Positions 1 to 11,941 are shown, numbered from the stretch's first letter. The stretch is DNA of 12,185 nt from an uncultured Deinococcales bacterium (GCA_964247135.1 CAXTTL010000145.1:1-12185), one strand, 5' to 3'. Notes: generated from the sequence alone by a model not told the origin. Numbers and translations: made by a program.

Positions 1-528
1 TCCTTCAAACCCAATCCAACCGACGACCTGAGCTTTGAACGACTCGAGTCTTCACCAAAGCAGGGCGTGTTCTTTACAGGACAGTTTTTCAACCAAACCG
101 ATCAGAGCAATCATCCTCAAGAAATCACCATTCTGGCAGTCGAATACGCGCCCAGAGCCTTGTCCGGTCAGGTGCTGCTCGAGCCAAATTACAATCCGCG
201 TTGGTTTGATTGGCTTTTTGATTGGTCAAGTCGTCAGTTGGGTGGTAAAGACCCCGAATCAAGTCCTTTGCCCAGAGGGGTCAGGTTCGAGGATTCAAGG
301 GCGTTGAAGTTGAACATCAAACCTTCTTTTGGGGCTTCAATCGCCATACTGACCAGCTCAATCACACCAGGTTTTTTGTGCTCAGGAATTCTTTCAGCCC
401 AAATCTACTGGCAGATTTTAATCAAATACCGACTTGGCTCTGGTGAAGTGCGTTATTACCCAATTCCGACAATATCGCCAATGGCTGCCGATCAACCTCG
501 AGAGACCCCCTTTGGTTTGAGGTGCTAA
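1..528 (+). CDS. Hypothetical protein, 5'-partial (frame open from the window edge)
   Basis: Frame 1 is open from base 1 (SFKPNPTDDLSFERLESSPKQGVFFTGQ...) to TAA at 526-528. It is co-oriented with the lipoprotein genes that follow. No family motif recognised. Confidence 0.55.
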   Translation, partial: SFKPNPTDDLSFERLESSPKQGVFFTGQFFNQTDQSNHPQEITILAVEYAPRALSGQVLLEPNYNPRWFDWLFDWSSRQLGGKDPESSPLPRGVRFEDSRALKLNIKPSFGASIAILTSSITPGFLCSGILSAQIYWQILIKYRLGSGEVRYYPIPTISPMAADQPRETPFGLRC

Positions 529-575
529 ACAGTGAGCTTGGGATTTGTCCTGAAATAAAATCTGTATGAAAGCGG

Positions 576-1037
576 GTGAATGTCTTGAAATGGTTTTTAC
601 TGGTTTTGATTTTTTTGTTTTCCTCCTGCGTTCCAAATTCAAAAGCCTATCCCATGTCGGTCTTCGCGGGGTCTTTTCCTCAAGACCCTCAATCTGGGGA
701 TTTACCGATTTGGAAAGCCTCACTCGAGGATTTAGAACCCGTGGCTTTAAAAGCCGTGCAAGGTTTTGATGGTCGTTTTCCTGATGCGTTCACTGTGGAT
801 TTGACCGATGCTGCCGAGGCGGAGAAGGGTTTAAAAGTCCATGAGATTTTGGAGTTGAGCATCACGAAGCTTCAAGTCAAAATCACCTTGACCGAAATGG
901 CGGGGCATGTTGCCTTGGGTGTCTTTGACCTGAGACTTGAATCTTCAAACGTCCCAGGGTTTAACTCGTTGGGTGATAATCTTTACAAGACGTTGGTGAG
1001 AGCTTTGGACGCTCAATTTCCTCGAGATCGAATTTGA
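576..1037 (+). CDS. Putative lipoprotein, paralog 1 of tandem array
   Basis: Basic-hydrophobic signal peptide ending in lipobox-like FSS-C. Clear similarity to 1539..2000 (FPQDPQS, LPxWK, ALDAxFxRDR). Start may be GTG 576 or TTG 585. Confidence 0.8.
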   Translation: MNVLKWFLLVLIFLFSSCVPNSKAYPMSVFAGSFPQDPQSGDLPIWKASLEDLEPVALKAVQGFDGRFPDAFTVDLTDAAEAEKGLKVHEILELSITKLQVKITLTEMAGHVALGVFDLRLESSNVPGFNSLGDNLYKTLVRALDAQFPRDRI

Positions 1038-1062
1038 TATTTCATTTCCGAATTGGAGCACT

Positions 1063-1512
1063 GTGAATCGATTCTGTATTGTTGGTATTTTTCTTTTTCT
1101 CGTTTCCTGCGCTCCAGCTTCAATCTCGAGCTACGAATTTTCTCTGCCTTCAAACCCTCAACTGTTCTGGGCGGCAACACCTGCAAACCTCGAGTCATTT
1201 GTGGTGTCGTTCGCGCAACAGTTTGATCCAAAATTTGCCAATGCTTTCGTCTCGAGCGATCTGTCGGTCAAGGGGTACAACGTTCATGAAATCACGCTCA
1301 ACCGCAACGCGTACTTTGACACCGACGGCAAACCGTACCGTCTCACGATTTTTGTGGCTTGGGCAGCCAAATCAAGCGATGAAACGTCTTTTATTTTGAT
1401 GAACGAGGAGAACACCAGCAGTCTGGATTTTCCTGCGAACACGCTGGCTTTCAATTTAAACGAGGCTTTGACCAAAGCGCTCGATGCCAATTTTAAACGT
1501 CTATCAAATTGA
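1063..1512 (+). CDS. Putative lipoprotein, divergent paralog 2 of tandem array
   Basis: GGAG at 1055-1058 before GTG. Signal peptide with LVS-C lipobox. Shares FDxxF, VHE and C-terminal ALDAxFxR motifs with both neighbours. Confidence 0.8.
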   Translation: MNRFCIVGIFLFLVSCAPASISSYEFSLPSNPQLFWAATPANLESFVVSFAQQFDPKFANAFVSSDLSVKGYNVHEITLNRNAYFDTDGKPYRLTIFVAWAAKSSDETSFILMNEENTSSLDFPANTLAFNLNEALTKALDANFKRLSN

Positions 1513-1538
1513 GGCTGCTCGAGTTTTGGGGGGTGTAC

Positions 1539-2000
1539 ATGAAGTTTTTATTGATGCTGTTGATTGTTTTCTTGACCGCCTGCGTTCCAGGTGCCACTTT
1601 TTCTGGGAATGCCAAGGTCAATTTCGTTTCCGAATTCACCGGTTTTTTCCCCCAAGACCCGCAAAGCGAAAACCTACCCGTTTGGAAGGGTTCACTCGAG
1701 TTGCTCGAGCCTGTGGTGCTCGAGGCGATCAGGTCTTTTGACGTGCAGTTTCAGGGCGTGTTTTCGTTTGACATCACCACGCTGCGCAATGGTGTGCGGG
1801 TTCATGAATTGCGCGGTTCGGGTTTGGTCAAAAACAATTTGCAAATTGATGTTTCCGAAACACTCGAGCATGTGGCGGTTGGGGTTTTTGACATGGGCGT
1901 CCCGTATCCAAACATTGCGCCAGCCAATTCCGTCGGGGCAAAACTCGAGTCGGCGATAGCGGCGGCGCTCGATGCGAAATTCGAGCGTGATCGTTTTTAA
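1539..2000 (+). CDS. Putative lipoprotein, paralog 3 of tandem array
   Basis: ATG 1539 gives MKFLLMLLIVFLTA-C, a canonical LTAC lipobox, preferred over the track's TTG 1509. Paralogous to 576..1037. Confidence 0.82.
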   Translation: MKFLLMLLIVFLTACVPGATFSGNAKVNFVSEFTGFFPQDPQSENLPVWKGSLELLEPVVLEAIRSFDVQFQGVFSFDITTLRNGVRVHELRGSGLVKNNLQIDVSETLEHVAVGVFDMGVPYPNIAPANSVGAKLESAIAAALDAKFERDRF

Positions 2001-2023
2001 GTTGTTCAAAAACCAAAACGCGG

Positions 2024-2029
2024 TACACT
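2024..2029 (+). promoter_or_regulatory. Putative -10 box (TACACT) of a leaderless transcript for the MFS-tsaB unit
   Basis: TACACT lies 7 nt before GTG 2037 and there is no Shine-Dalgarno sequence. Confidence 0.55.
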
Positions 2030-2036
2030 TCAAACC

Positions 2037-3380
2037 GTGAGCCTCGAGCCAACAAACCACGACGTTCTGCTCGAGCGAAGCGAGGCATTGAGTTTAACGC
2101 TGCCCGAAGCTCGAGTGCGGCGCACCATGAACCTCTCGATCATCGAGGGGATGCCGTCGATGTTTTTTATCAATCTCACGCAAGGTAGCGTCTTGACGGG
2201 TTTCGCGCTGTTTTGCGGTGCAAATCCCTTCGAACTTGGCTTACTCTCGAGCGTGCCATTGTTCGGGCAAGTTTTATCGCCGTTTATCGCCTGGTGGGCT
2301 GGGCGGCTTGGGCGGCGCAAATTCTTGGCGTTCTGGTTGGCGTTTATCGGGCGCGGTTTGTGGATTCTGGCGGCGATGCTGCCGATGATTGCCCCCAAAG
2401 AATCTCGAGCGGGTTTATTGATTTTGATTGTTGCCCTCTCGAGCATTCTGATGGCGGGCAATGGCACGCTCTGGACGGCTTGGATGGGCGATATCGTGCC
2501 GCCCAAAGAACGCGGTCGCTATTTTGGTTTGCGCGGCGGCATTCTGGGCGTGGTTGGCACGGTGGCAAGCTTGCTGGCAGGTTTTTTCATTGATGCCACG
2601 CCCTCACCGCTCGATTTTGAGGTGGTGCTCGGCGTGGCAATCGGGGTGGGTTTGATCGCGGCAATATTGTTGTTGGCACACGATGAACCCAAAGTGACCA
2701 CGGTGCGACTGCGGTTAAAGGAGACCTTTACCGTGCCGTTTCAGAATGCCAATTTTCGGCAGTTCATGGTATTTGCCGTGTACTGGACGTTTTCGGTTTT
2801 AACGGCAGCGCCGTTTGTGATTCCGTATTTTATCAAGCAACTGGGCATGACCTACACCCAAATCGCCATCTGGACGACCATTGCCAGCATCAGCGGTTTG
2901 ATCTTCTCGCCGTGGTGGGGACGCATCGCCGACCGTGCGGGCAACAAACCCGTGCTGCAATTGGCAACCGTGTTTTGTGCGGTCTTGCTGCCTGGGTCTT
3001 GGATGCTGGCGCAACCTGGCATCATCTTTCCAATCTGGATTGCGGCGGTCTTTGACGCTTTCGTTTGGGGCGCAATCGGACCCGCGCAATTCAACCTCGC
3101 CCTCTCGAGCGCCCCGCAGAACAACCGCTCGAGTTTTATTGCCGTCATGAGCGCGGTCACGGGTTTGGCGGGTTTTGTTGGTGGGCTTTTTAGTGGCGTG
3201 TTGTTCGATTGGTTCTCGAGCTTGCCCTCTGGCGAGGCATACGGGTTTCACTGGACCAATTACCATTGGTTGTTTTTGTTCTCGGCGCTGCTGCGTTCCC
3301 AAGCCTGGCGTTTGTTGCAACCCATGCAAGAACCTGGCGCGTGGCGCGTCCGTGAGATGATCTCGAGGATGTGGTCGTGA
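2037..3380 (+). CDS. MFS transporter
   Basis: 447 aa with about 12 hydrophobic segments. MFS motif A variants AGRLGRRK and WGRIADRAGNK, plus WMGDIVPPKERGRYFG. Substrate unknown. Confidence 0.92.
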   Translation: MSLEPTNHDVLLERSEALSLTLPEARVRRTMNLSIIEGMPSMFFINLTQGSVLTGFALFCGANPFELGLLSSVPLFGQVLSPFIAWWAGRLGRRKFLAFWLAFIGRGLWILAAMLPMIAPKESRAGLLILIVALSSILMAGNGTLWTAWMGDIVPPKERGRYFGLRGGILGVVGTVASLLAGFFIDATPSPLDFEVVLGVAIGVGLIAAILLLAHDEPKVTTVRLRLKETFTVPFQNANFRQFMVFAVYWTFSVLTAAPFVIPYFIKQLGMTYTQIAIWTTIASISGLIFSPWWGRIADRAGNKPVLQLATVFCAVLLPGSWMLAQPGIIFPIWIAAVFDAFVWGAIGPAQFNLALSSAPQNNRSSFIAVMSAVTGLAGFVGGLFSGVLFDWFSSLPSGEAYGFHWTNYHWLFLFSALLRSQAWRLLQPMQEPGAWRVREMISRMWS

Positions 3381-3946
3381 GGATTTTGGCGCTCGAGACG
3401 AGCACCCCGTATTTTTGTGCAGGTTTGCTCGAGGTTGAGCATGATCTTGAAGTCTTCAAACTCGAGCAAATTGATTTTGTGGATCGCGCCCATGCGGAAC
3501 TCGGCATCGAAAAAATTCAAACCTTATTTCGAGCGGCAAACCTCGAGCCGAAAGCGGATTTGATTGTGGTTGGCACAGGTCCAGGTTCGTACACGGGCGT
3601 TCGCGTGGCAGCCAGTTTGGGGCTTGGGCTGGCGAGGGTTTGGAAAGCTAGTGTTGTGGGCGTGTCCACCCTCGAAGCGATTGCCGCCACTCGAGACGGT
3701 GTTGTCGCCGTCAGCTTGGATGCGCGACGCGGGAATGTTTACAGCGCGATTTATCAAGTTTTAAATGGCAAAATTCTCGAGGTTTTAAATGGTGTTGAAA
3801 AACGGACGCTCGAGGATTTTCGAGCTTTAATTCCAGAAAACGCCATCAAGCTCGAGGATGCTGCACCAAACCCACTGGTGCTGGCGAGGTTGGGTTTGGA
3901 ACGTTTCAAACGCGGCGAAACTGAATTGACGCTCGAGTATTTATGA
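3377..3946 (+). CDS. tsaB: tRNA threonylcarbamoyladenosine biosynthesis protein TsaB (YeaZ)
   Basis: Motifs ILALETST, HAE, VGTGPGSYTGVRV, GVSTLEAIA and LDARRGNVY. GTG 3377 overlaps the MFS stop (GTGA), with GAGGA at 3365-3369. Confidence 0.95.
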   Translation: MRILALETSTPYFCAGLLEVEHDLEVFKLEQIDFVDRAHAELGIEKIQTLFRAANLEPKADLIVVGTGPGSYTGVRVAASLGLGLARVWKASVVGVSTLEAIAATRDGVVAVSLDARRGNVYSAIYQVLNGKILEVLNGVEKRTLEDFRALIPENAIKLEDAAPNPLVLARLGLERFKRGETELTLEYL

Positions 3947-4753
3947 TTGCTCGAGGGCGGAAAGTTCTGGGGTTTTGGGATTCATGTTCTCCCAGGAATC
4001 CTCGTCGAAGAGTTGCACTTGCTTGCCAAAATCTTGATGGATGCCGCGCTGCACCAAGTAATATGCGAACCCCAGCGCGATAAACGTGGCGATCAAACTT
4101 GGGAGATATAACTTGATGTTGGCGTTGGCAATTTGACCGTTAAATTCTTCCGTGCCATATTTTCCAGTCACAATCCGAAAGTTCACCACAAAATTGACTG
4201 CACCAAAAATCAGTCCCTCGAGCATCATGACGATGGTGGCGTACTTTAAGCCTTTGACTGTATTTGGGGCGTTTAAAATTTGCTCGAGAAAACCTTGCTT
4301 TTCCGGTGGACTCGCTGCGCCCAAACCGACCTTGAGCATAAATTTAAAAAATGGCGTGCCGAGGATTAACGAGCCGCCCATCACGAGCGCGGTCAGAATA
4401 TGACGGTATGAATCTTTAAGTGCAAACGCTGCGCCATCAATTCTTAAGAATGCCAGCGCCCCACCTGCCAACGCGCCAGAACCCGCCAGCAGCGTGACGG
4501 GATTAAAAACTCGAGTTCTCAAAAGATCAATCGCAATGTAGATAACTGGAATCAAGGCAGCAATAATGTAGGTCGTGACCGGACCTAGAATATCCGAAAA
4601 ACCGATCCCGTGGTGTTTGATATCTCTGCCCAGCAAACTCGGGCTGAGTAGAGCAACTGGAATGGCAAGTGTGAAAATCAAATCCAAAATCAGTTTCTTC
4701 AACTGACCTTTTTGCGCGGCAATTTGCTTGGTGGTGGCTTGTGGTTCTGACAT
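3941..4753 (-). CDS. VC0807-like integral membrane protein
   Basis: 270 aa with several TM segments. The N-terminal LILDLIFTLAIPVALL and the later FALKDS...GGSLILGTPFFK pattern resemble the VC0807 family (from recall, not a search). Convergent 6-nt overlap with tsaB. Confidence 0.7.
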   Translation of the reverse strand: MSEPQATTKQIAAQKGQLKKLILDLIFTLAIPVALLSPSLLGRDIKHHGIGFSDILGPVTTYIIAALIPVIYIAIDLLRTRVFNPVTLLAGSGALAGGALAFLRIDGAAFALKDSYRHILTALVMGGSLILGTPFFKFMLKVGLGAASPPEKQGFLEQILNAPNTVKGLKYATIVMMLEGLIFGAVNFVVNFRIVTGKYGTEEFNGQIANANIKLYLPSLIATFIALGFAYYLVQRGIHQDFGKQVQLFDEDSWENMNPKTPELSALEQS

Positions 4754-4759
4754 GACCTT

Positions 4760-4765
4760 AGTTTA
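4760..4765 (-). promoter_or_regulatory. Putative -10 box (TAAACT) of a leaderless transcript
   Basis: TAAACT lies 6 nt upstream of ATG 4753 on the minus strand, with no strong SD. Confidence 0.5.
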
Positions 4766-4815
4766 CCGTGCTGGCTCGAGAAGCCCAAATTTAAGCAGAG
4801 GGCGAAAGGCAAAAG

Positions 4816-5739
4816 TTAAATTCGTGTTTCAATCTCAAGGTTCAACCACTGCACCTCGAGCGGCGTGAGTTCAAGCTCGAGCGCCTTGAACGAACTGGCG
4901 GTTTCACTGGTGTTACGCGGTCCGATCAATGGAATGGTCAGGAACGGCTGCCAGAGTACATATGCCAGTGCAATTTGAATCGGGTCACAGCCTTTTTCGC
5001 GTGCCAGTTCTTGCGCTCGAGCCAATCTTTGGAAGTTATCAGGACTGTACCAGCAGCGTACCAATTCTTCATCCTCGAGAAAATCTTGGTTGCCACGCAC
5101 AAAAAAACCTCGAGCTTGACTTGACCACGGCAGCAACGTGATTTGGTTTTCGGTCAACCAAGCTCGAGATTCCGCATCGGAAGCGCTGATGCAGCCCGCC
5201 CAGGGTGGATCGATCATTCTGGCGAGGGAAAAATTGTTGCTGACCACGCTAAAGCCTTGCAAGCCTTTGGCTTTTGCGTACTCATTCGCTTCCTGAACCC
5301 TGACGACACTCCAATTCGAGCCGCCGAAAGTTTTGATTCGCCCAGCCCTCAAATGAACATTCAGCACATCCACAAACGCGCTGACAGGCAACTCGAGGTT
5401 GTCGCGGTGCATCATGTAAATGTCCAGGTAATCGGTTTGCAACCGCTCGAGGCTGGTCATCAGTTGAGTCGTAATGTTTTCTGGATCGCAATACGGCGTG
5501 TGAGCACCCTTGCCGATAATGACCACGCTCTCGCGCAATTTTCGATCCATCAACCACTGCCCAAAAACGGTTTCGCAGACTCCAGAACCGTAAATAAACG
5601 CCGTGTCAAAACAATTTCCACCTCGAGCGATAAAATCATCGAACACCACACCCGCAGGCTCGAGTTCAGTTTGGTTGTCAACGCCCATCACCAATCTGGC
5701 AACGGGTTTGGCTAGGTGTGGGATGTTCGCGTGATTCAT
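4816..5739 (-). CDS. Aldo/keto reductase
   Basis: AKR catalytic tetrad contexts FDTAFIYG (D, Y), IGKG (K) and MHRD (H). Also SLERLQTDYLDIY, GGSNWS and PLIGPR. RBS AGGAG upstream and TATAAT at 5774-5779 on the minus strand. Confidence 0.93.
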   Translation of the reverse strand: MNHANIPHLAKPVARLVMGVDNQTELEPAGVVFDDFIARGGNCFDTAFIYGSGVCETVFGQWLMDRKLRESVVIIGKGAHTPYCDPENITTQLMTSLERLQTDYLDIYMMHRDNLELPVSAFVDVLNVHLRAGRIKTFGGSNWSVVRVQEANEYAKAKGLQGFSVVSNNFSLARMIDPPWAGCISASDAESRAWLTENQITLLPWSSQARGFFVRGNQDFLEDEELVRCWYSPDNFQRLARAQELAREKGCDPIQIALAYVLWQPFLTIPLIGPRNTSETASSFKALELELTPLEVQWLNLEIETRI

Positions 5740-5873
5740 GGGTTCTCCTGAACATTTTTTTGAGGTTCGAGAAATTATAACTCGAGGTGGGCGCGAACGA
5801 AGAGGGTTTGGGTTTTAAATACTCGAGCTTGAAGAAGAAAGTCGAAGTTGCAGCCTGATCATAAAATTGATTG

Positions 5874-5882
5874 TGGTATAAT
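5874..5882 (+). promoter_or_regulatory. Extended -10 promoter (TG-G-TATAAT) for the SnoaL-like gene
   Basis: Perfect TGnTATAAT about 57 nt upstream of ATG 5939. Confidence 0.6.
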
Positions 5883-5889
5883 CACGAAT

Positions 5890-5920
5890 AAACACTCACT
5901 CAATCAAAAAGTGAGTGTTT
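5890..5920. promoter_or_regulatory. Inverted repeat (operator or 5'-UTR hairpin)
   Basis: AAACACTCACT-N9-AGTGAGTGTTT has perfect 11-bp arms and lies between the extended -10 and the GAGGAG RBS. Confidence 0.55.
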
Positions 5921-5938
5921 TATTGATGAGGAGCATTC

Positions 5939-6283
5939 ATGACCAACGATCAAAATCAGAACGTGATAGACAACTTGATCATCGCCTACAACAACCACAA
6001 CGCTCGAGGCTTTGCGGATTTTTTCAGCGAGGATGCCATTCATGGCACACTTCACACAGAACAGTTACAACATGGGCGAGAAGAAATTTATCAGAGGTAT
6101 CTCGAGGTTTTTGCGACCTACCCAGAAAATAAAACTGAAGTCCTTCATCGGACTACTTTTGGTCCATTTGTCGTTGACCACGAACTTGTCACCCGAAGCC
6201 CGAGCACCGAACCTTTTCATGTTGTGGCAATTTATAAACTCGAGGCTGGATTGATTACACGCCTTGATTTTGTTCGAGAGTAA
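5939..6283 (+). CDS. SnoaL-like / NTF2-family protein
   Basis: 114 aa with the pattern AYNNHNARGFADFFSEDA...GREEI...VVDHE...VAIYKLEAGLITR. Strong GAGGAG RBS. Confidence 0.88.
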   Translation: MTNDQNQNVIDNLIIAYNNHNARGFADFFSEDAIHGTLHTEQLQHGREEIYQRYLEVFATYPENKTEVLHRTTFGPFVVDHELVTRSPSTEPFHVVAIYKLEAGLITRLDFVRE

Positions 6284-6314
6284 AACAAAACTCGAGAAAC
6301 CGAAGTCTCTCGAG
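6283..6314 (-). terminator. Intrinsic terminator of the yidC operon, possibly bidirectional
   Basis: Hairpin CTCGAGAAAC-CGAA-GTCTCTCGAG (6291-6314) is followed on the minus strand by TTTTGTTT. It lies between convergent stop codons. Confidence 0.6.
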
Positions 6315-6330
6315 CCTCAAAAATCTATTT

Positions 6331-7917
6331 TTACTTTGCGGCGACTTTAACGATTTTGCCTTTTAAAGCCATTTCCGCATTGATTTTGTTGGTAATAAAC
6401 CATTGTTGCCCAATCGCAATCGCGGTGGAAAGCACCCAGTACAGGGTCACACCGGCTGGGAACGACAGCACGATGTAAACAAAAATAAATTGCATGACGA
6501 TTTGTTGCTTGAACATTTCGGGCGTGTTGCGCGTCGAAACCCACAACTGCCCAACGTTGACGATCACGTACAAGACCGGCAGAATATAAAACGGATCGGG
6601 CAAGCTGAGATCGCGCAACCACAAGAAACCCTGGTTGAACTCGAGGTTTTGAAACACGCGCCACAAGACCACCAGCACCGGCATTTGCAACAGAATCGGC
6701 AGGCAGCCCGAGAGTGGGTTCGTGCCGTGTTCTTTGTAGAGTTTCATCAACTCTTCTTGTTGTTTTTGAGGGTTTTCTTTGTATTTGGCTTGCAGTTCTT
6801 TGACTTGCGGTTGAATGGCTTGCATTTCGGCGGTCGAACGGAACTGGGTTTGAAGGAGTGGCCACAACGCCAGACGCAACAACAAGGTAAAGGCAATGAT
6901 CGCCAAACCCCACGAGTGCGTGTAAGAATTCAAAAACTCGAGGATTTTGACCAGCACCAAGGAAATCTGTCCAAAAATATTGGGTTTGAACAGTCCTGGC
7001 AGGGCGTAATAACCTTCCTGGTTAAAGCGAATCAACTCGTCAAAACCACCATACAAATTCAGTTTGTTTTGCGTGCCAGTCAAGGCAACATTGATGGTGC
7101 TGACATCAAAATTTTCGGTACCCTTGTCGGTCTTGCGCGATTGGGTACGAAGCCCCATTTTAACAGGCAGGGTGCTTTTCAAATCTTGGTTACGCACAAT
7201 AAACGATTGCCCTTGACCACCCAAGAATGAACGGCAGCACTGCATACTGGCGTACACCGCATTTTTGACTTCGCCGCTGGAAGCCGTGTCGCCAACCTCG
7301 AGCGGCGCGGTTTGACCAGACTCGAGGGCTTTCATGACGGGTTTGCCATTGCCCAGACCCACAAATTCGATCTGGTAATTGCTAACGCCAGTCACATTCA
7401 AATCCAAACCAAGCGTCAGCGTGCTGGCGTTGAGCGTGTACAACTTCGTGACGCTCGAGCCGCCAGCCGTGTACTGAAAGGTTGCCGTTAAAATTCGGGC
7501 ATTCGGTTCGCCACTCACCTCGAGCTTGGGAGCTTGCGCAACAGGCGTTCCCAAAGATTTTCCATCCGCAGCCAGCACCACGCTCGAGAGCGCATCTTTC
7601 ATGACCAGGGTTTGTTGACGGTCATAATTGTCTTTGTTGTCCGTGCCTTTGACCATTTTGGGATACCAACCCAAAATCTCACCGGCATCGTTAAAAGCGA
7701 TATCCACCAAGTTGGTGATCGCCAGATAATCACCTTTGCCATCTTTGTTGATGTCGGGGTCGTTGACCTGGGTGGTCGCTTTGCTACCGTCGGGATTGGT
7801 GATTTCTTTGCTGATCTTGGTCGGCGTGACCCAATGCGGATCGAGTGCCGCAAACGCTCCACCCGAGAAAACCAGCGCCGCAACCGTCACCAGCGCAAAT
7901 TGAAAACCTTTTAACAT
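6331..7917 (-). CDS. yidC: Membrane protein insertase YidC
   Basis: Motifs SWGLAIIAFTLLLR, NPLSGCLPILLQMP, FLWLRDLSLPDP and PAGVTLYWVLS. ATG 7917 has an AGAGGAG RBS and gives 528 aa, preferred over 7995. Follows yidD. Confidence 0.97.
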   Translation of the reverse strand: MLKGFQFALVTVAALVFSGGAFAALDPHWVTPTKISKEITNPDGSKATTQVNDPDINKDGKGDYLAITNLVDIAFNDAGEILGWYPKMVKGTDNKDNYDRQQTLVMKDALSSVVLAADGKSLGTPVAQAPKLEVSGEPNARILTATFQYTAGGSSVTKLYTLNASTLTLGLDLNVTGVSNYQIEFVGLGNGKPVMKALESGQTAPLEVGDTASSGEVKNAVYASMQCCRSFLGGQGQSFIVRNQDLKSTLPVKMGLRTQSRKTDKGTENFDVSTINVALTGTQNKLNLYGGFDELIRFNQEGYYALPGLFKPNIFGQISLVLVKILEFLNSYTHSWGLAIIAFTLLLRLALWPLLQTQFRSTAEMQAIQPQVKELQAKYKENPQKQQEELMKLYKEHGTNPLSGCLPILLQMPVLVVLWRVFQNLEFNQGFLWLRDLSLPDPFYILPVLYVIVNVGQLWVSTRNTPEMFKQQIVMQFIFVYIVLSFPAGVTLYWVLSTAIAIGQQWFITNKINAEMALKGKIVKVAAK

Positions 7918-7942
7918 TCCTACTCCTCTAAAAACCCGAGCT

Positions 7943-8404
7943 TTACGACACTCGAGGCTTGTTCTTCCACATGCCAGGTTCTGGAACGGGATCAAACCCG
8001 CCAGGATGCAACGGTTGGCATTTTAAAACACGAATGGTCGCCAAAACTGTGCCTTTTGCCGCACCGTGCACCCGCACCGCTTCCAGGGCGTAACTCGAGC
8101 AACTTGGGACAAACCTGCAACTCGGTGCGCCCTTGAGGGGTGAAAGGTACTTTTGATAGCCGACAATGCCCAGCATCAAAGCTCGAGCGGCAATGTTGGG
8201 GCGTTTTGGGCGGCTCGAGAATGGGTCGGTGGGGTTCGGATTGGGTGTAGGGGATGGTCTCAGACCATCCCCTACGGATTGTGATTGTTCATTGAATGGG
8301 ATGTCTTGCGTGGGCGCAGCAAGCGACCCAAGCCTGTCAGGTGCTGTTTTAGGGTCAAGAAGCAGCGCCCCTACGGGAAGGTTTTTTGGTTCGCTCGAGG
8401 TCAT
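7943..8404 (-). CDS. yidD: Membrane protein insertion efficiency factor YidD with a REP-containing N-terminal extension
   Basis: Core YQKYLSP...[19 protein letters not shown]...[20 protein letters not shown] 8404 overlaps the rnpA stop (ATGA). Confidence 0.93.
8247..8275. repeat. GTAG-type REP-like perfect palindrome inside yidD
   Basis: GTAGGGGATGGTCT-C-AGACCATCCCCTAC has perfect 14-bp arms with GTAG/CTAC ends. Confidence 0.8.
8309..8375. repeat. Degenerate inverted REP pair (REPIN-like) inside yidD
   Basis: The minus strand reads CGTAGGGGCGCTGCTTCTTGACCC...GGGTCGCTTGCTGCGCCCACG. It has 15 nt identical to the REP at 11593. Confidence 0.65.
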
Positions 8405-8787
8405 GAGACCAACCCACTTTTACGGACAGCGACATGGATGGCTTTGACCAGTTGCGCGTAGGTGGCGCCGGCAGCTTCGGGCTGCGCCACGATCATGGCT
8501 TCCATCGCGGGTAAATCCATGCGGCGCACGGCTTCGCGGATGCGACGGCGGACTTTGTTGCGGACCACGGCTTTGCCCACTTTTTTAGACACGACGATTC
8601 CCACCACCACCTCGAGCCTTTTGGTTTTGATCCAGCGCAAACTCAGTAAATTGCTGCGTCCAGCTTTGCCTTTGGCACGAACCCGCCTGAAACGCCAGTC
8701 GCCACTTAAACTGGCGTAAGGCAGTGGTTTGAAAGGTCGAAGTGAATCAACACGAGCCTCGAGTGTGTGGTCTCGAGGCTCGGTCAT
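8401..8787 (-). CDS. rnpA: Ribonuclease P protein component
   Basis: [24 protein letters not shown] is an RNR-type motif. ATG 8787 has GGAG 6 nt upstream and gives 128 aa. Lies between rpmH and yidD. Confidence 0.95.
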
Positions 8788-8839
8788 GATGGTCTCCAAA
8801 TTCTGAACGAAATGGTTTACACCATCCCGTACAAGAGGC

Positions 8840-8992
8840 TTATTGGAAGTGTGGGCTGCTGACGGCAATGGTCTTGCGACCTTTTGCGCGGCGGCGCGAC
8901 AGCACGGCGCGACCCGTGGCGGTGCTCATACGAGCGCGGAATCCGTGGGTTTTGGCGCGTTTACGACGGTTTGGTTGCCAAGTACGTTTCAT
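8840..8992 (-). CDS. rpmH: 50S ribosomal protein L34
   Basis: Manual translation gives [50 protein letters not shown] (50 aa). GAGG RBS at 9001-9004. Too short for the ORF track. Confidence 0.98.
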
Positions 8993-9060
8993 AGTGTGAA
9001 CCTCAGAACGCTCAGTCTCGAGCCAGTCATTTCCTGCCTCGAGTTGAGGCTAGCCTTGGA

Positions 9061-9069
9061 AATATAGCA
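9061..9069 (-). promoter_or_regulatory. Putative extended -10 promoter (TG-C-TATATT) of the rpmH operon
   Basis: The minus strand reads TGCTATATT about 70 nt upstream of the rpmH ATG. Confidence 0.5.
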
Positions 9070-9074
9070 CAGCT

Positions 9075-10910
9075 TTAGATTGCTGGCAACAGCACCCGAA
9101 CACTGAACACGGGCAACTCGAGGATTCCGTCTGTTGCCGTGAATTGCTCGAGCGTCAGAACGTCTTGCCAGACACCTGTTTCGACGCCAGCCAGTTTGAG
9201 GTCGAGTTGCAAGGTGCTCGCAACCGAACCTCGGGTGGCGGCGACAATCGCCACATCGGCGCGTCCAGCGGCATCGGTGAAGGCTCGAGAGAAGGCGATG
9301 GTTTCATCCCCAGTCCCCAACCAGATCAGGTTTCCGGCTTGCAACGCGCGGCTCGAGCGTCGGGCGCGAATCAGTTTTTTGACATCCTCGCACAAGTTTT
9401 TGTTCCACCGCTTTTCATCCCAGATCATCGGGGCGCGGTTGAGTGGGTCGCCGCCGCCCATCATGCCGATCTCGTCGCCGTAATAAATGCCTGGGACGCC
9501 AGGGTACGCCAGCATCAGCGCCAGCGCGGTACGGTGCTTGGTCACGTCACCCTTCAAGCGCTCGAGCAACCTTGGGATGTCGTGCGAACCCACCAGGTTG
9601 TAATGGCTCATGCGCATGGGTGTCGGCACGACGCGGTAGCTCTCGAGGAGGACATGCTCGAGTTCACTGGTGGGAACTTGAACCGGACGATCAAAGATGC
9701 TCCAGCCGCTCAACCAGTCGGTGACGGGCAGCCCAAAGCCCTGGTAGTTCATCACGCCGTCCTCGCCGCCACCCGCAAAATTGGCGGCATCGTTCGCTCC
9801 TTGCAGCGCGGCTTCGGCATCCCAGAAACGCTCGCCGAAGACCCACGCCTCGGGGTTCTCGAGCCTGGCGGCGGCTTTCAGGCGTTTGTGAATCTCGAGG
9901 TTGCCATCGTCGCGCCCAGAAGCGCCCATCATGTGCGCGACATCAAGCCGCCAACCGTCCGCGCCAAACCGCAACCAGAACCGCACGGGCGCGGTTTCCT
10001 CCTCAAGAAAATGCTCGAACGTCATGGCTGAGGCGAAATCGAGCTTGGGCAAGGTCGGCACGCCGAAGAACGCCTCGTACTTGCCGCTCGCCAAGAAGGT
10101 GTACATCTGGCGGTGCAAGCCGTCTTTCAGGGCGCTTTGAAAGGCAGGCAGTTGATCGCCCGTGTGGTTGAACACACCGTCCAGAATAATCTTAAAGCCC
10201 CTGGCATGAGCCGCCTCGAGCAATTCTTTTAAAGCATTTTCGCCGCCCAAATGCGGGTCGATCTCGAGAAAATTTTGAATGTCGTAACGGTGGTTGCTGG
10301 GGCTGGTAAAAATCGGGTTGAGGTAAATGCCGTTGACACCCAGCTCCTCGAGGTAATCCAGGCGTTTGGTAATCCCCTGCAAATCGCCGCCAAAGTGCTC
10401 AAAAACGTTTCCGGCTCTGGTTGGCAGTTCGTTCCACGCTTTTTTGACCACCGGTTTTTTGCCGTAGATGTATTCCCCAGTTTGCACATCGTTGCTGGGG
10501 TCGCCGTTCTCAAATCGGTCTGGGAAAATCTGGTAAAACACCCTGTCCTCGAGCCAGTCGGGACGGTGATGGTCAGCCAAGAATTGAAAATAATCGCGGA
10601 ACGGCGGGTTGACCCTCGAGACGCCACGGTTGGAGAGTTGCACAGAATCGGTGTCTGTCAAAACGCTAAAAATGTATTTGGTGGTGAGGGCATGAAGCTC
10701 GAGCTTGCCCTCAAAATATTGAAACGCACCCTCGGTTTTGAAAAATTTCATGGGTTTGCGATTCATTTCGCCGTACTTCAGCACCACCAACGCCACCTCT
10801 TTGGGTTTGACATCCGCCGGCAACCGCAGCCGCACCGTCAGGGTATCGCCAAGTTTTGCCTCAGGGTGAGAGGTGTAAAACGGTGTCGCATCGTGATACA
10901 AATAATTCAT
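9075..10910 (-). CDS. GH13 alpha-amylase-family glycosidase (maltodextrin glucosidase MalZ / neopullulanase-like)
   Basis: Motifs FYQIFPDRF, GGDLQGI, DGVFNH, GWRLDVAH (nucleophile D), GERF (acid/base E), GSHD, YYGDEIG and DPLNRAPM. TGGAGGT RBS. No signal peptide. Confidence 0.93.
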   Translation of the reverse strand: MNYLYHDATPFYTSHPEAKLGDTLTVRLRLPADVKPKEVALVVLKYGEMNRKPMKFFKTEGAFQYFEGKLELHALTTKYIFSVLTDTDSVQLSNRGVSRVNPPFRDYFQFLADHHRPDWLEDRVFYQIFPDRFENGDPSNDVQTGEYIYGKKPVVKKAWNELPTRAGNVFEHFGGDLQGITKRLDYLEELGVNGIYLNPIFTSPSNHRYDIQNFLEIDPHLGGENALKELLEAAHARGFKIILDGVFNHTGDQLPAFQSALKDGLHRQMYTFLASGKYEAFFGVPTLPKLDFASAMTFEHFLEEETAPVRFWLRFGADGWRLDVAHMMGASGRDDGNLEIHKRLKAAARLENPEAWVFGERFWDAEAALQGANDAANFAGGGEDGVMNYQGFGLPVTDWLSGWSIFDRPVQVPTSELEHVLLESYRVVPTPMRMSHYNLVGSHDIPRLLERLKGDVTKHRTALALMLAYPGVPGIYYGDEIGMMGGGDPLNRAPMIWDEKRWNKNLCEDVKKLIRARRSSRALQAGNLIWLGTGDETIAFSRAFTDAAGRADVAIVAATRGSVASTLQLDLKLAGVETGVWQDVLTLEQFTATDGILELPVFSVRVLLPAI

Positions 10911-10936
10911 ACAACCTCCAAAAAAACTCGAGAAAC

Positions 10937-10979
10937 AAAAAAATCGGACACGCTCTTCGGTTGAAGAGGTCGTGCCCGA
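10937..10979 (-). terminator. Intrinsic terminator just upstream of the GH13 gene
   Basis: The minus-strand RNA reads UCGGGCACG-AC-CUCUUC-AACC-GAAGAG-CGUGUCCGA-UUUUUUU. One pair is G-U on the minus strand but A-C on the plus strand, which supports the minus orientation. Confidence 0.75.
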
Positions 10980-11084
10980 GTGGACAAGCGTTGCCTTTAA
11001 GCTGTGACCAGATTTTTCTTGAACCGAGTGTACAACAAAACCCCCAAGCTCGAGATGAGAACTGATTTTAAAACGCTAGCAATT

Positions 11085-11363
11085 TCATGATTTCAGCAAA
11101 CGCGCCAGGTCTTTGTACACTCGAGAACGATGACCGATCAGCCGCACTCGCATGACAGTATCAGCCTCAAAATCGTAAACAATCCGGTAATCACCAACCC
11201 GCAACTTGTAAAAACCCTCAAAATTCCCTTCGAGCGCTTCAGGGGCAACATCATTCTCGAGAAACCAACTGAGCTTCTCGACGATTCGTTGTTTTAAAGC
11301 TGCCTCGAGATTCGCAAAATCTTTTTCTGCCGCTGGTGAGAGCAGCAAACGAAATCTCACCAT
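11085..11363 (-). CDS. RelE/ParE-family type II toxin
   Basis: Reads RFRLLLSPAAEKDF...LEGNFEGFYKLRVGDYRIVY...IGHRSRVYK. The start (ATG 11363 or GTG 11360) overlaps the end of the upstream small gene. Confidence 0.9.
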   Translation of the reverse strand: MVRFRLLLSPAAEKDFANLEAALKQRIVEKLSWFLENDVAPEALEGNFEGFYKLRVGDYRIVYDFEADTVMRVRLIGHRSRVYKDLARLLKS

Positions 11364-11557
11364 TTGAAACCGTGTTTGAGAGCTAAATCTTCGATGCTGA
11401 TACAATCTTTGGTTTCAAGTGGTTGTGACAAAATCTCAATCACTTCATCACTGAGTTCAAGACCCGCATCGGGGTCTTTCTCGAGCATCGTTTCACGCAC
11501 GGTCTCCCGAATGATGGCACGAAATTCTTCAATGGTTAAATCGGCGACCCGTTGCAT
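11357..11557 (-). CDS. Putative cognate antitoxin
   Basis: 66-aa acidic protein directly upstream of and overlapping the RelE-like gene, ending in ISIEDLALKHG. Function inferred from context. Confidence 0.75.
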   Translation of the reverse strand: MQRVADLTIEEFRAIIRETVRETMLEKDPDAGLELSDEVIEILSQPLETKDCISIEDLALKHGFKW

Positions 11558-11563
11558 GAAAAA

Positions 11564-11569
11564 AGTTTA
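11564..11569 (-). promoter_or_regulatory. Putative -10 box (TAAACT) of a leaderless TA transcript
   Basis: TAAACT lies 6 nt upstream of ATG 11557 and there is no SD. Confidence 0.55.
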
Positions 11570-11592
11570 AACCCAACAAAGTCAAAAATCCA

Positions 11593-11620
11593 GTAGGGGC
11601 GCTGCTTGCCGCGCCCTTAC
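11593..11620. repeat. Intergenic GTAG-type REP-like palindrome
   Basis: GTAGGGGCGC-TGCTTGCC-GCGCCCTTAC has arms matching at 9 of 10 positions and lies just downstream of the metallophosphoesterase stop. Confidence 0.75.
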
Positions 11621-11632
11621 GCACATTTAAAA

Positions 11633-11941
11633 CTATTTCCCAACCTCAAGCCTTGCCGCCAGCATGTCCGGTAAACCCGCCGCCCTGATTTTTTGTTGGG
11701 TGACCTCGAGATCGTACTTGACGCGGTGAACTTCAAAAATACCTTTGGCGTAATCGTAAATGCCGTAACTGGCGTGCGGGTTGCCGTCCCTGGGTTGACC
11801 GACGCTGCCAGGGTTGGCAATCCACCTGGCTTTGGGCGGCATTGCCAGACGGTTGTGCGCGTCCTCCATGCCCTGCCAGCGCGTCCACTCGCCGTTCGGA
11901 GAGTTGATCGTGGCATACACCCCAGGTTTGTGGGTGTGACC
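11633..11941 (-). pseudogene. C-terminal half of a calcineurin-like metallophosphoesterase, 5'-truncated in this sequence
   Basis: Reads GHTHKPG...[17 protein letters not shown]...HRVKYD...[15 protein letters not shown]. The frame hits TGA at 12023-12025 upstream, and no DxH, GD, GNH or HGSP motif context is seen in any frame. May be an assembly artefact rather than a true pseudogene. Confidence 0.7.

Follow-up and report, generated by a model that had tools for sequence, protein, structure and literature searches.

CTCGAG as a lineage-wide, highly iterated DNA word in an uncultured family of Deinococcales

The window considered here is the whole of a 12,185-nucleotide (nt) stretch of DNA from an uncultured Deinococcales bacterium (GCA_964247135.1, CAXTTL010000145.1:1-12185), and the question that it raises is why one palindromic hexamer, CTCGAG, should be found in it about once every 130 nt. 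An initial annotation had counted about 94 sites against an expectation of about 3, and had likened the word to the highly iterated palindromes (HIPs) of cyanobacteria. The exact count is 94, from a first site at position 43 to a last site at 11705-11710 (43..11710, unstranded); 200 dinucleotide-preserving shuffles of the window hold 2.06 copies on average and 6 at most, and none of the 200 reaches 94. Within open reading frames (ORFs) the word is read as CTC-GAG (Leu-Glu) 54 times, as nCT-CGA-Gnn 15 times and as nnC-TCG-AGn 16 times, which bears out the claim that all three codon phases are used. The 9 sites outside ORFs (4775, 5781, 5822, 6291, 6309, 9017, 9038, 10927 and 11049) are exactly the nine positions that had been listed as intergenic. 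Sites lie in genes on both strands, core and accessory alike, as the annotation had said, and profile searches confirm the assignments of tsaB, yidC, rnpA and the ParE toxin.

The descriptive answer is secure: CTCGAG is a lineage-wide, highly iterated DNA word. The window is one contig of a 5.09-Mb assembly of 386 contigs (the longest 116 kb) that is 84% complete and has a GC content of 52.7%. This genome carries 33,925 copies, one every 150 base pairs (bp), at an observed-to-expected ratio (O/E) of 24.8 by base composition, making CTCGAG the commonest of all hexamers; the next palindromic hexamer reaches an O/E of only 3.7. The enrichment is thus neither confined to the window nor an effect of the inner tetranucleotide, two readings that the annotation had allowed for, since 33,925 of the 54,610 TCGA tetranucleotides (62%) sit within CTCGAG, while each of the other 15 NTCGAN words is present in 121 to 2,188 copies. 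Flanking preferences are weak, 39% of sites having G at position -1 and 38% having C at +1, and GCTCGAGC is no more frequent than those two frequencies predict, so the unit is the strict hexamer. A maximal-order Markov control returned an O/E of 1.24 and was rejected, because the pentamers CTCGA and TCGAG occur almost solely inside CTCGAG and the model is saturated by the motif itself.

Codon usage does not account for the excess. Genes were called from ORFs scored by codon usage, a crude procedure that gave 4,544 genes over 84% of the genome, and each was compared with synonymous shuffles (10 replicates, protein and each gene's codon usage preserved) and with a codon-order shuffle. The CTC-GAG frame holds 17,577 sites against 3,120 in the synonymous shuffle (5.6-fold) and 1,197 in the codon-order shuffle; the corresponding counts are 4,211 against 288 (14.6-fold) and 164 for nCT-CGA-Gnn, and 6,374 against 561 (11.4-fold) and 301 for nnC-TCG-AGn. 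Outside called genes the density is 6.94 per kb (O/E 31.9), compared with 6.6 per kb in coding DNA, and the strict spacers, 30 to 300 bp long and bounded by called genes, carry 2,261 sites in 242,219 nt, or 9.3 per kb (O/E 40 to 52), with spacers between convergent genes the densest of all at 10.9 per kb. CTCGAG is therefore densest where sequence is least constrained, and the argument of the annotation that Leu-Glu bias is insufficient holds, as does its proposal of a genome-wide, HIP-like palindrome acting on DNA rather than on translation.

The word has also left its mark on gene products. Leu-Glu is the most over-represented dipeptide of the proteome (O/E 2.37; Glu-Leu 1.02), 77% of Leu-Glu pairs are spelled CTCGAG, 44% of CTC codons precede GAG, and about 30% of CGA and TCG codons fall within the hexamer; outside the motif, CTC is not a favoured leucine codon. 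CTCGAG has raised the Leu-Glu content of the proteome, in keeping with the suggestion that it is strong enough to shape proteins. Even among structural RNA genes it persists, in that 66 predicted transfer RNA (tRNA) genes hold 10 copies where the host density predicts 34, a number still above chance, and about 13% of these genes keep the word. Two tRNA-Glu genes have it at position 8; some of the underlying ARAGORN calls may be false.

Along the contigs the copies are spread with a mean gap of 148 bp and a largest gap of 2,644 bp, and every 5-kb window has at least 8 sites. Gaps shorter than 20 bp are scarce (0.24 to 0.54 times random placement), as are those between 300 and 800 bp (0.70 to 0.82 times). 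Copies at a distance of 6 were never seen, because two adjacent copies would create GAGCTC, which belongs to a large set of palindromes that this genome avoids: 36 of the 64 palindromic hexamers fall below 0.2 times expectation, the O/E of GGCC is 0.02, and genome-wide copy numbers are 0 for GAGCTC, 1 for GGGCCC, 3 for CGGCCG, 4 for AGGCCT, 5 for CGTACG and 7 for GGATCC. Among the motif-poorest contigs is C112 (15.5 kb; 3.55 sites per kb), where a run of small ORFs has 0 to 2 sites each and where a methyltransferase-SNF2 helicase fusion of 1,499 residues is encoded; this contig may be a mobile island.

The trait is common to the family. All 19 family genomes sampled, from five genera, carry 4.3 to 6.8 copies per kb. 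Related loci fetched with the glycoside hydrolase GH13 glucosidase-like gene of the window (9075..10910) as query separate cleanly, with an O/E of 16.7 to 35.9 in all 13 loci from Deinococcales/Deinococcota metagenome-assembled genomes (MAGs) and of 0 to 1.5 in all 10 loci from other phyla. Ten further MAG loci retrieved through yidC give 17.6 to 32.6 over a GC range of 43 to 59%, so that 23 of 23 named loci of the uncultured Deinococcales/Deinococcota group lie between 16.7 and 35.9. The nearest named genus is the opposite case: five Deinococcus/Deinococcaceae loci have 2 copies of CTCGAG in 82,011 nt and likewise 2 of GAGCTC, and a Deinococcus-like genus (26 genomes) is depleted, with 40 to 942 copies per genome. 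In other families of the order a weaker excess was noted in all frames and in uncalled DNA, reaching an O/E of 6 to 9 in four samples (G116, G029, G008 and G051) and about twice the shuffle in G003, with G096 depleted; as gene calls are rough in the GC-rich samples among these, this may be a lead only, albeit one that may offer cultured relatives.

Comparison with a second species indicates that the word is maintained as a unit. A genome of the same genus was aligned over 245 kb at 85.8% identity, and in this one genome pair the partner retains 1,386 of 1,733 aligned CTCGAG sites; the other 347 occur in this genome alone, and a further 213 in the partner alone. By class, the share of sites retained is 83% for the Leu-Glu frame, 82% and 68% for the two remaining frames and 77% for non-coding DNA, whereas hexamers in general are identical in 46 to 47% of cases in those classes. 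Within the motif, third-codon positions reach an identity of 0.90 to 0.93 in two of the frames and of 0.78 to 0.80 in the remaining one, with flanks near 0.70; in non-coding DNA the motif positions reach 0.87 to 0.92, with flanks near 0.77. What is constrained is the motif itself, not the surrounding sequence, and all six positions resist substitution. Among 1,145 aligned Leu-Glu codon pairs, 945 are CTCGAG, and spellings one step away are short-lived: the partner has the identical spelling for 2 of 26 copies of CTTGAG and for 2 of 10 copies of CTGGAG.

Counts of single-mismatch variants, which the annotation had singled out as a check, show all 18 to be 15 to 350 times rarer than CTCGAG genome-wide, which argues for a reader of the whole hexamer. 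None is depleted except where it contains CTAG. Transitions are commoner than transversions, variants altered at the central CG are the rarest, and the expected deamination products TTCGAG (O/E 1.77) and CTTGAG (O/E 1.16) are not depleted. With every alternative base disfavoured at each of the six positions, recognition of the entire hexamer fits the pattern better than a repair bias acting on one mismatch, and the conservation indicates that the hexamer as a whole is selected or transmitted with a bias, rather than being an outcome of codon use.

Incoming DNA offers a further line of evidence. This genome has two arrays of clustered regularly interspaced short palindromic repeats (CRISPR), at C221:7026-8137 and C9:61-168, the 37-nt repeat of which itself contains CTCGAG and recurs with up to 3 mismatches in 7 of the 19 family genomes (this genome among them). 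Five genomes yield 90 unique spacers of 3,127 nt in total, and these hold 22 copies (7.0 per kb), against 0.72 expected by composition and 17.8 by host density, and the palindromes avoided by the host are missing from them as well. None of the 75 spacers of other genomes matches this genome at 70% identity or more, the same result as with shuffled spacers, so these spacers do not come from shared chromosome. Either mobile elements of the family carry CTCGAG at host density, or incoming DNA is filtered for it. Among the listed matches of viral contigs to a three-site CTCGAG pattern, the densest are mostly GC-rich, the top 25 having 58 to 71% GC; a search of the 19 genomes for HK97-capsid prophages gave no match over the cut-off in any of them, and three motif-free spacers had no exact match in viral contigs.

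The explanation preferred here, to which a probability of roughly 40% is assigned with its sub-variants included, is that selection, or a bias of transmission, in favour of the intact hexamer holds CTCGAG at roughly one copy per 150 bp, as a kin or self tag in the exchange of DNA. What keeps the word dense would then be neither codon usage, protein needs nor a one-step mutational bias. The whole word would be read, and its reader is probably a dimeric protein that binds or processes DNA in a sequence-specific way and encounters whatever DNA enters the cells or resides there. As a best guess, the word would mark kin or self DNA in uptake, in recombination, or in the survival of incoming or broken DNA, and either selection or a drive biased by uptake would sustain this role, in line with current proposals for HIP1, for which a role as an uptake signal is put forward in the available text of Rodriguez-Cruz et al. 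2026 (PMC13756078).

Several observations weigh against the self-tag explanation. No reader protein was found in the searches made here, and the gene calls on which the frame comparisons depend are ORF-based, made without a trained gene finder. Known uptake sequences are longer, asymmetric and present about once per kb, and, to our knowledge, Deinococcus and Thermus have been reported to take up DNA without sequence preference. Counts in 5-kb windows are over-dispersed (variance 62.7, mean 33.3), and spacing is not simply regular; composition-based metagenome binning could moreover have removed motif-poor islands. Of 15 unique own spacers, one matches this genome's own contig C25 at positions 927-961 (35 of 37 nt), its target being a 172-residue gene of unassigned family and with no phage hallmark, on a contig without clear phage genes. 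Finally, spacers rich in the motif would follow from an uptake filter as well as from mobile elements that carry it densely, and the two sub-hypotheses are not separated by them.

Foremost among the alternatives, although unlikely, is a methylation-linked HIP as in the Elhai model, in which an orphan CTCGAG or TCGA methyltransferase would mark the sites and a methylation-dependent step of repair or transformation would create or favour them. Cyanobacterial HIPs and alternate HIPs are each described as co-occurring with a methyltransferase of that specificity in the available text of PMC4390886, and HIP1 is described as improving transformation in a way that depends on methylation (10.1101/2024.09.10.611283, likewise from partial text). 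The family is rich in methyltransferases, with C5 homologues in 16 of the 18 other genomes, and the rarity of variants altered at the central CG is loosely HIP1-like. Pfam profiles (PF07669, PF01555, PF00145, PF02384 and PF02086) were run on this genome or on a panel of one genome per genus, PF02384 being left out of the panel, and 11 methyltransferase genes were recognized in this genome, which is 84% complete and in which specificity is not readable from sequence. Seven of them were searched family-wide, and none has a close homologue (at least 50% identity) in more than 6 of the 18 other genomes: the counts are 3 for each of two C5 enzymes, 0, 2, 4 and 3 for four N6/N4 enzymes, and 6 for a D12 enzyme. 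The other four genes encode large enzymes (on contigs C112, C21, C192 and C169; two MmeI-type, one SNF2-fused and one HsdM-like).

Candidates that seemed more widely conserved were rejected on inspection. The D12 enzyme is shared between genera and occurs in 7 of 19 family genomes, counting this one, but it belongs to a SacI-type pair (C320:1061-2985) in which its gene and the start of a SacI-family nuclease gene overlap; most family genomes have almost no GAGCTC, and the D12 hits of the panel form sporadic groups. PF07669 proteins of about 500 residues, one per panel genome, were considered as a conserved enzyme; two that were checked are type I HsdM subunits, and where any two of the five hits match at all, their identity is just 23 to 32%. 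The complete single-contig family genome G030 has no PF01555 enzyme. Nor does the classical partner of such a methylase appear: the XhoI nuclease (PF04555) is found in 0 of 19 family genomes with a profile that recovers it in 6 of 121 genomes of the order (five of family f4 and one decayed copy in f2). Its partner enzymes elsewhere in the order are a 340-residue PF01555 enzyme and a TaqI-like enzyme, to which the best matches in the family are just 25 to 28% identical, with no close homologue. In another family, at G016:C1:1094188-1097598, a XhoI-family nuclease gene interrupted by two stop codons adjoins an intact TaqI-like methyltransferase gene (PF07669 with TaqI_C), which looks, from its sequence and setting, like an orphaned CTCGAG-type methylase. 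With no match to Vsr in this genome, and with TTCGAG and CTTGAG undepleted, the suggestion of the annotation that methylation-directed repair creates the sites is not supported, and the methyltransferase link that defines cyanobacterial HIPs appears not to be present here among the enzymes searched.

A functionless by-product is rather more doubtful. Here, a context-specific bias of mutation or repair, or biased gene conversion toward CTCGAG, would raise the word without benefit. In agreement with this, density peaks where constraint is lowest (9.3 per kb in spacers, 6.6 in coding DNA), mobile DNA in the same cells has the motif too, and the one-off Leu-Glu spellings disappear quickly. However, such a bias would need to work against each of the three alternative bases at every one of the six positions, and by at least 15-fold, whereas known short-patch repair fixes one mismatch in one context; the search of this genome for Vsr was negative, and the motif is kept at an amino-acid cost and within some tRNA genes.

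Quite improbable, in our estimation, is a methylation-independent self word that would be read directly by a nuclease or recombination machine of the host, for instance as an orientation-free, Chi-like attenuator of AddAB. Were this true, every replicon in these cells, phages and plasmids included, would have to carry CTCGAG densely, and the avoidance of the word in neighbouring Deinococcus, set against its hyper-accumulation here, would be a natural experiment on the birth of a genome-wide word. The Chi-like signal taken by itself, by which an AddAB-type helicase-nuclease would be attenuated and CTCGAG-rich DNA spared and recombined after breaks, is a slightly longer shot. This genome does encode an adjacent pair of AddA-like (UvrD helicase with PD-(D/E)XK nuclease) and AddB-like (ADDB_N) genes. 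Large PD-(D/E)XK proteins are present in 4 of 5 genomes tested, the exception being the motif-depleted Deinococcus-like genome, and spacer DNA at host motif density is what would be expected if the motif protects any replicon. Against these stand matches that fall well short of the NCBIfam equivalog cut-offs (174.5 bits for a cut-off of 707.65, and 26.1 bits for one of 903.7), a nuclease domain that also matches the Thermus thermophilus control, genomes of 2.1 to 2.5 Mb in genus g9 without excess over the reversed word, and the fact that five related genomes make a comparison and not a test. CTCGAG is moreover its own reverse complement and so has no asymmetry or strand skew, and all Chi sequences known to us are asymmetric, strand-skewed and enriched only a few-fold. 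Separately, a YhcG/DUF1016 PD-(D/E)XK nuclease gene was noted between pheS and pheT (C151:6616-7725).

Just as improbable as the Chi-like signal is a site bound by an abundant protein that is associated with the nucleoid or organises the chromosome, with selection for a coverage both dense and even. A six-base palindrome would suit a dimer, very short gaps and gaps of 300 to 800 bp are scarce, the largest gap is 2.6 kb, and CTCGAG is conserved in non-coding DNA. On the other hand, no candidate protein was found, pair distances judged by eye have no periodicity of 10 to 11 bp, the 5-kb counts are over-dispersed, and host-like density in foreign DNA is not obviously explained by such a protein. 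A codon-pair or dipeptide preference for Leu-Glu as CTC-GAG, as in GC-rich genomes, is refuted: it is consistent with 62% of coding sites lying in that frame, and with GC-rich relatives and the listed GC-rich viral contigs in which much CTCGAG is in that frame or tracks high GC, but it is at odds with the 11- to 15-fold excess over the synonymous shuffle in the other two frames, the intergenic O/E of 40 to 52, the standing of CTC outside the motif and its frequent pairing with GAG, and a genome GC of only 52.7%.

Within the window, the core gene tsaB (3371..3946, + strand; TIGR03725, 112.8 bits, above the cut-off) has 9 sites; yidC, also a core gene (6331..7995, - strand; yidC_oxa1_cterm, 194 bits), has 8; and rnpA (8401..8868, - strand; PF00825, 68.2 bits) has 3. 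A GH13 maltodextrin-glucosidase-like gene (9075..10910, - strand) has 15 and matches NF008051 at 476.9 bits, below the 568-bit cut-off, and an accessory parE-like toxin gene (11085..11405, - strand; PF05016, 42.1 bits), with a small ORF upstream of it, has 3. The yidD gene was also identified; 65 nt in its frame (8312-8376) recur with 97% identity at C14:39452-39516, and this stretch may be a small dispersed repeat.

Between the genes, two nearby copies can pair because the word is self-complementary. After yidC, the pair at 6291..6314 (- strand) forms the stem of a terminator-like hairpin of -19.4 kcal/mol (z = -4.33), with a 14-bp stem, a UUCG loop and a following U-run, and 0 of 200 shuffles fold as well. 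A second pair at 9017..9043 (- strand) forms a mutually pairing hairpin of -19.8 kcal/mol (z = -4.04), and a third at 5781..5827 (+ strand) closes a longer hairpin for which support is weaker (-16.6 kcal/mol, z = -2.68; 2 of 200 shuffles fold equally well). The exact count leaves three single sites outside ORFs, at 4775..4780, 10927..10932 (in an A-rich spacer) and 11049..11054, all unstranded. Genome-wide there are 680 non-coding pairs of sites 10 to 30 nt apart, with a T-rich tail in 156.

No published report of CTCGAG hyper-abundance was found in a literature search that did not extend to supplementary tables of methylated motifs. Methylation of CTCGAG is reported from hot-spring communities (10.64898/2026.06.24.734251) and from giant viruses (10.1101/2019.12.21.884833), and enrichment is not claimed in the available text of either. 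The word changes the proteome, builds terminator-like stems and appears both in the CRISPR repeat and in the DNA that the arrays target. In practice it is a compositional marker of use in binning, in the flagging of imported DNA and in assigning mobile elements to these uncultured hosts.

Among known systems, XhoI/PaeR7I has the same target (PF04555), and its nuclease is encoded in 6 of 121 genomes of the order, although in 0 of the 19 family genomes; genomes usually avoid restriction targets, and the Deinococcus-like ones do so, whereas CTCGAG is hyper-abundant here. Very-short-patch repair in Escherichia coli shapes the counts of CCWGG and CTWGG by a few-fold, at one position and with one variant depleted; it resembles the present case as a repair process enriching a methylase target word, but here the excess is 25-fold, involves all positions and leaves no variant depleted, and no Vsr was found in the genome. 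Chi, recognized by RecBCD or AddAB, is asymmetric, strand-skewed and modestly enriched; like CTCGAG, it is a short over-represented word, one that marks own DNA to a helicase-nuclease, and an AddAB-like pair is encoded here, though nothing ties it to CTCGAG.

Also comparable are the uptake signal sequences (USS) of Pasteurellaceae and the DNA uptake sequences (DUS) of Neisseriaceae, which are asymmetric words of 9 to 12 nt, present about once per kb and scarce in phage or newly acquired DNA. As with CTCGAG, these are genome-wide short words found in all frames, fairly evenly spread, common to related species, and explicable by drive rather than by benefit at each site. Unlike them, CTCGAG is a strict 6-nt palindrome with weak flanks that occurs once per 150 bp, and foreign DNA as sampled by CRISPR carries it at host density (22 in 3,127 nt).

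The closest likeness is to HIP1 (GCGATCGC) and the alternate HIPs, which have so far been described in cyanobacteria only (PMC4390886, Elhai 2015; PMC5861425, Xu, Lawrence and Durand 2018; PMC13756078; all cited from partial text) and the function of which has been uncertain for thirty years. HIP1 is described as conserved between genomes, and as having a long-range quasi-periodicity with periods of 18 to 94 kb, in the available text of PMC5861425. In both cases a GC-rich palindrome exceeds expectation tens of times over, is present in every frame as well as outside coding DNA beyond what codon use explains, is a lineage-wide trait of genomes, here one that otherwise avoids many palindromes, and is more conserved between genomes than control words, in coding and non-coding DNA alike. 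The presence of CTCGAG in a CRISPR repeat is a further point of likeness, reportedly seen with the cyanobacterial word too (PMC6604393). The differences are that CTCGAG is a hexamer and HIP1 an octamer, that the phylum is Deinococcota, and that the word is several times denser, with 6,660 copies per Mb against 300 to 2,700 per Mb given for HIP1 in the available text of PMC4390886. The co-distributed methyltransferase that anchors the cyanobacterial models also appears to be missing here among the enzymes searched. CTCGAG thus provides a second, independent and denser case in another phylum, and with it a comparative test, as whatever function HIPs serve should be common to both lineages.

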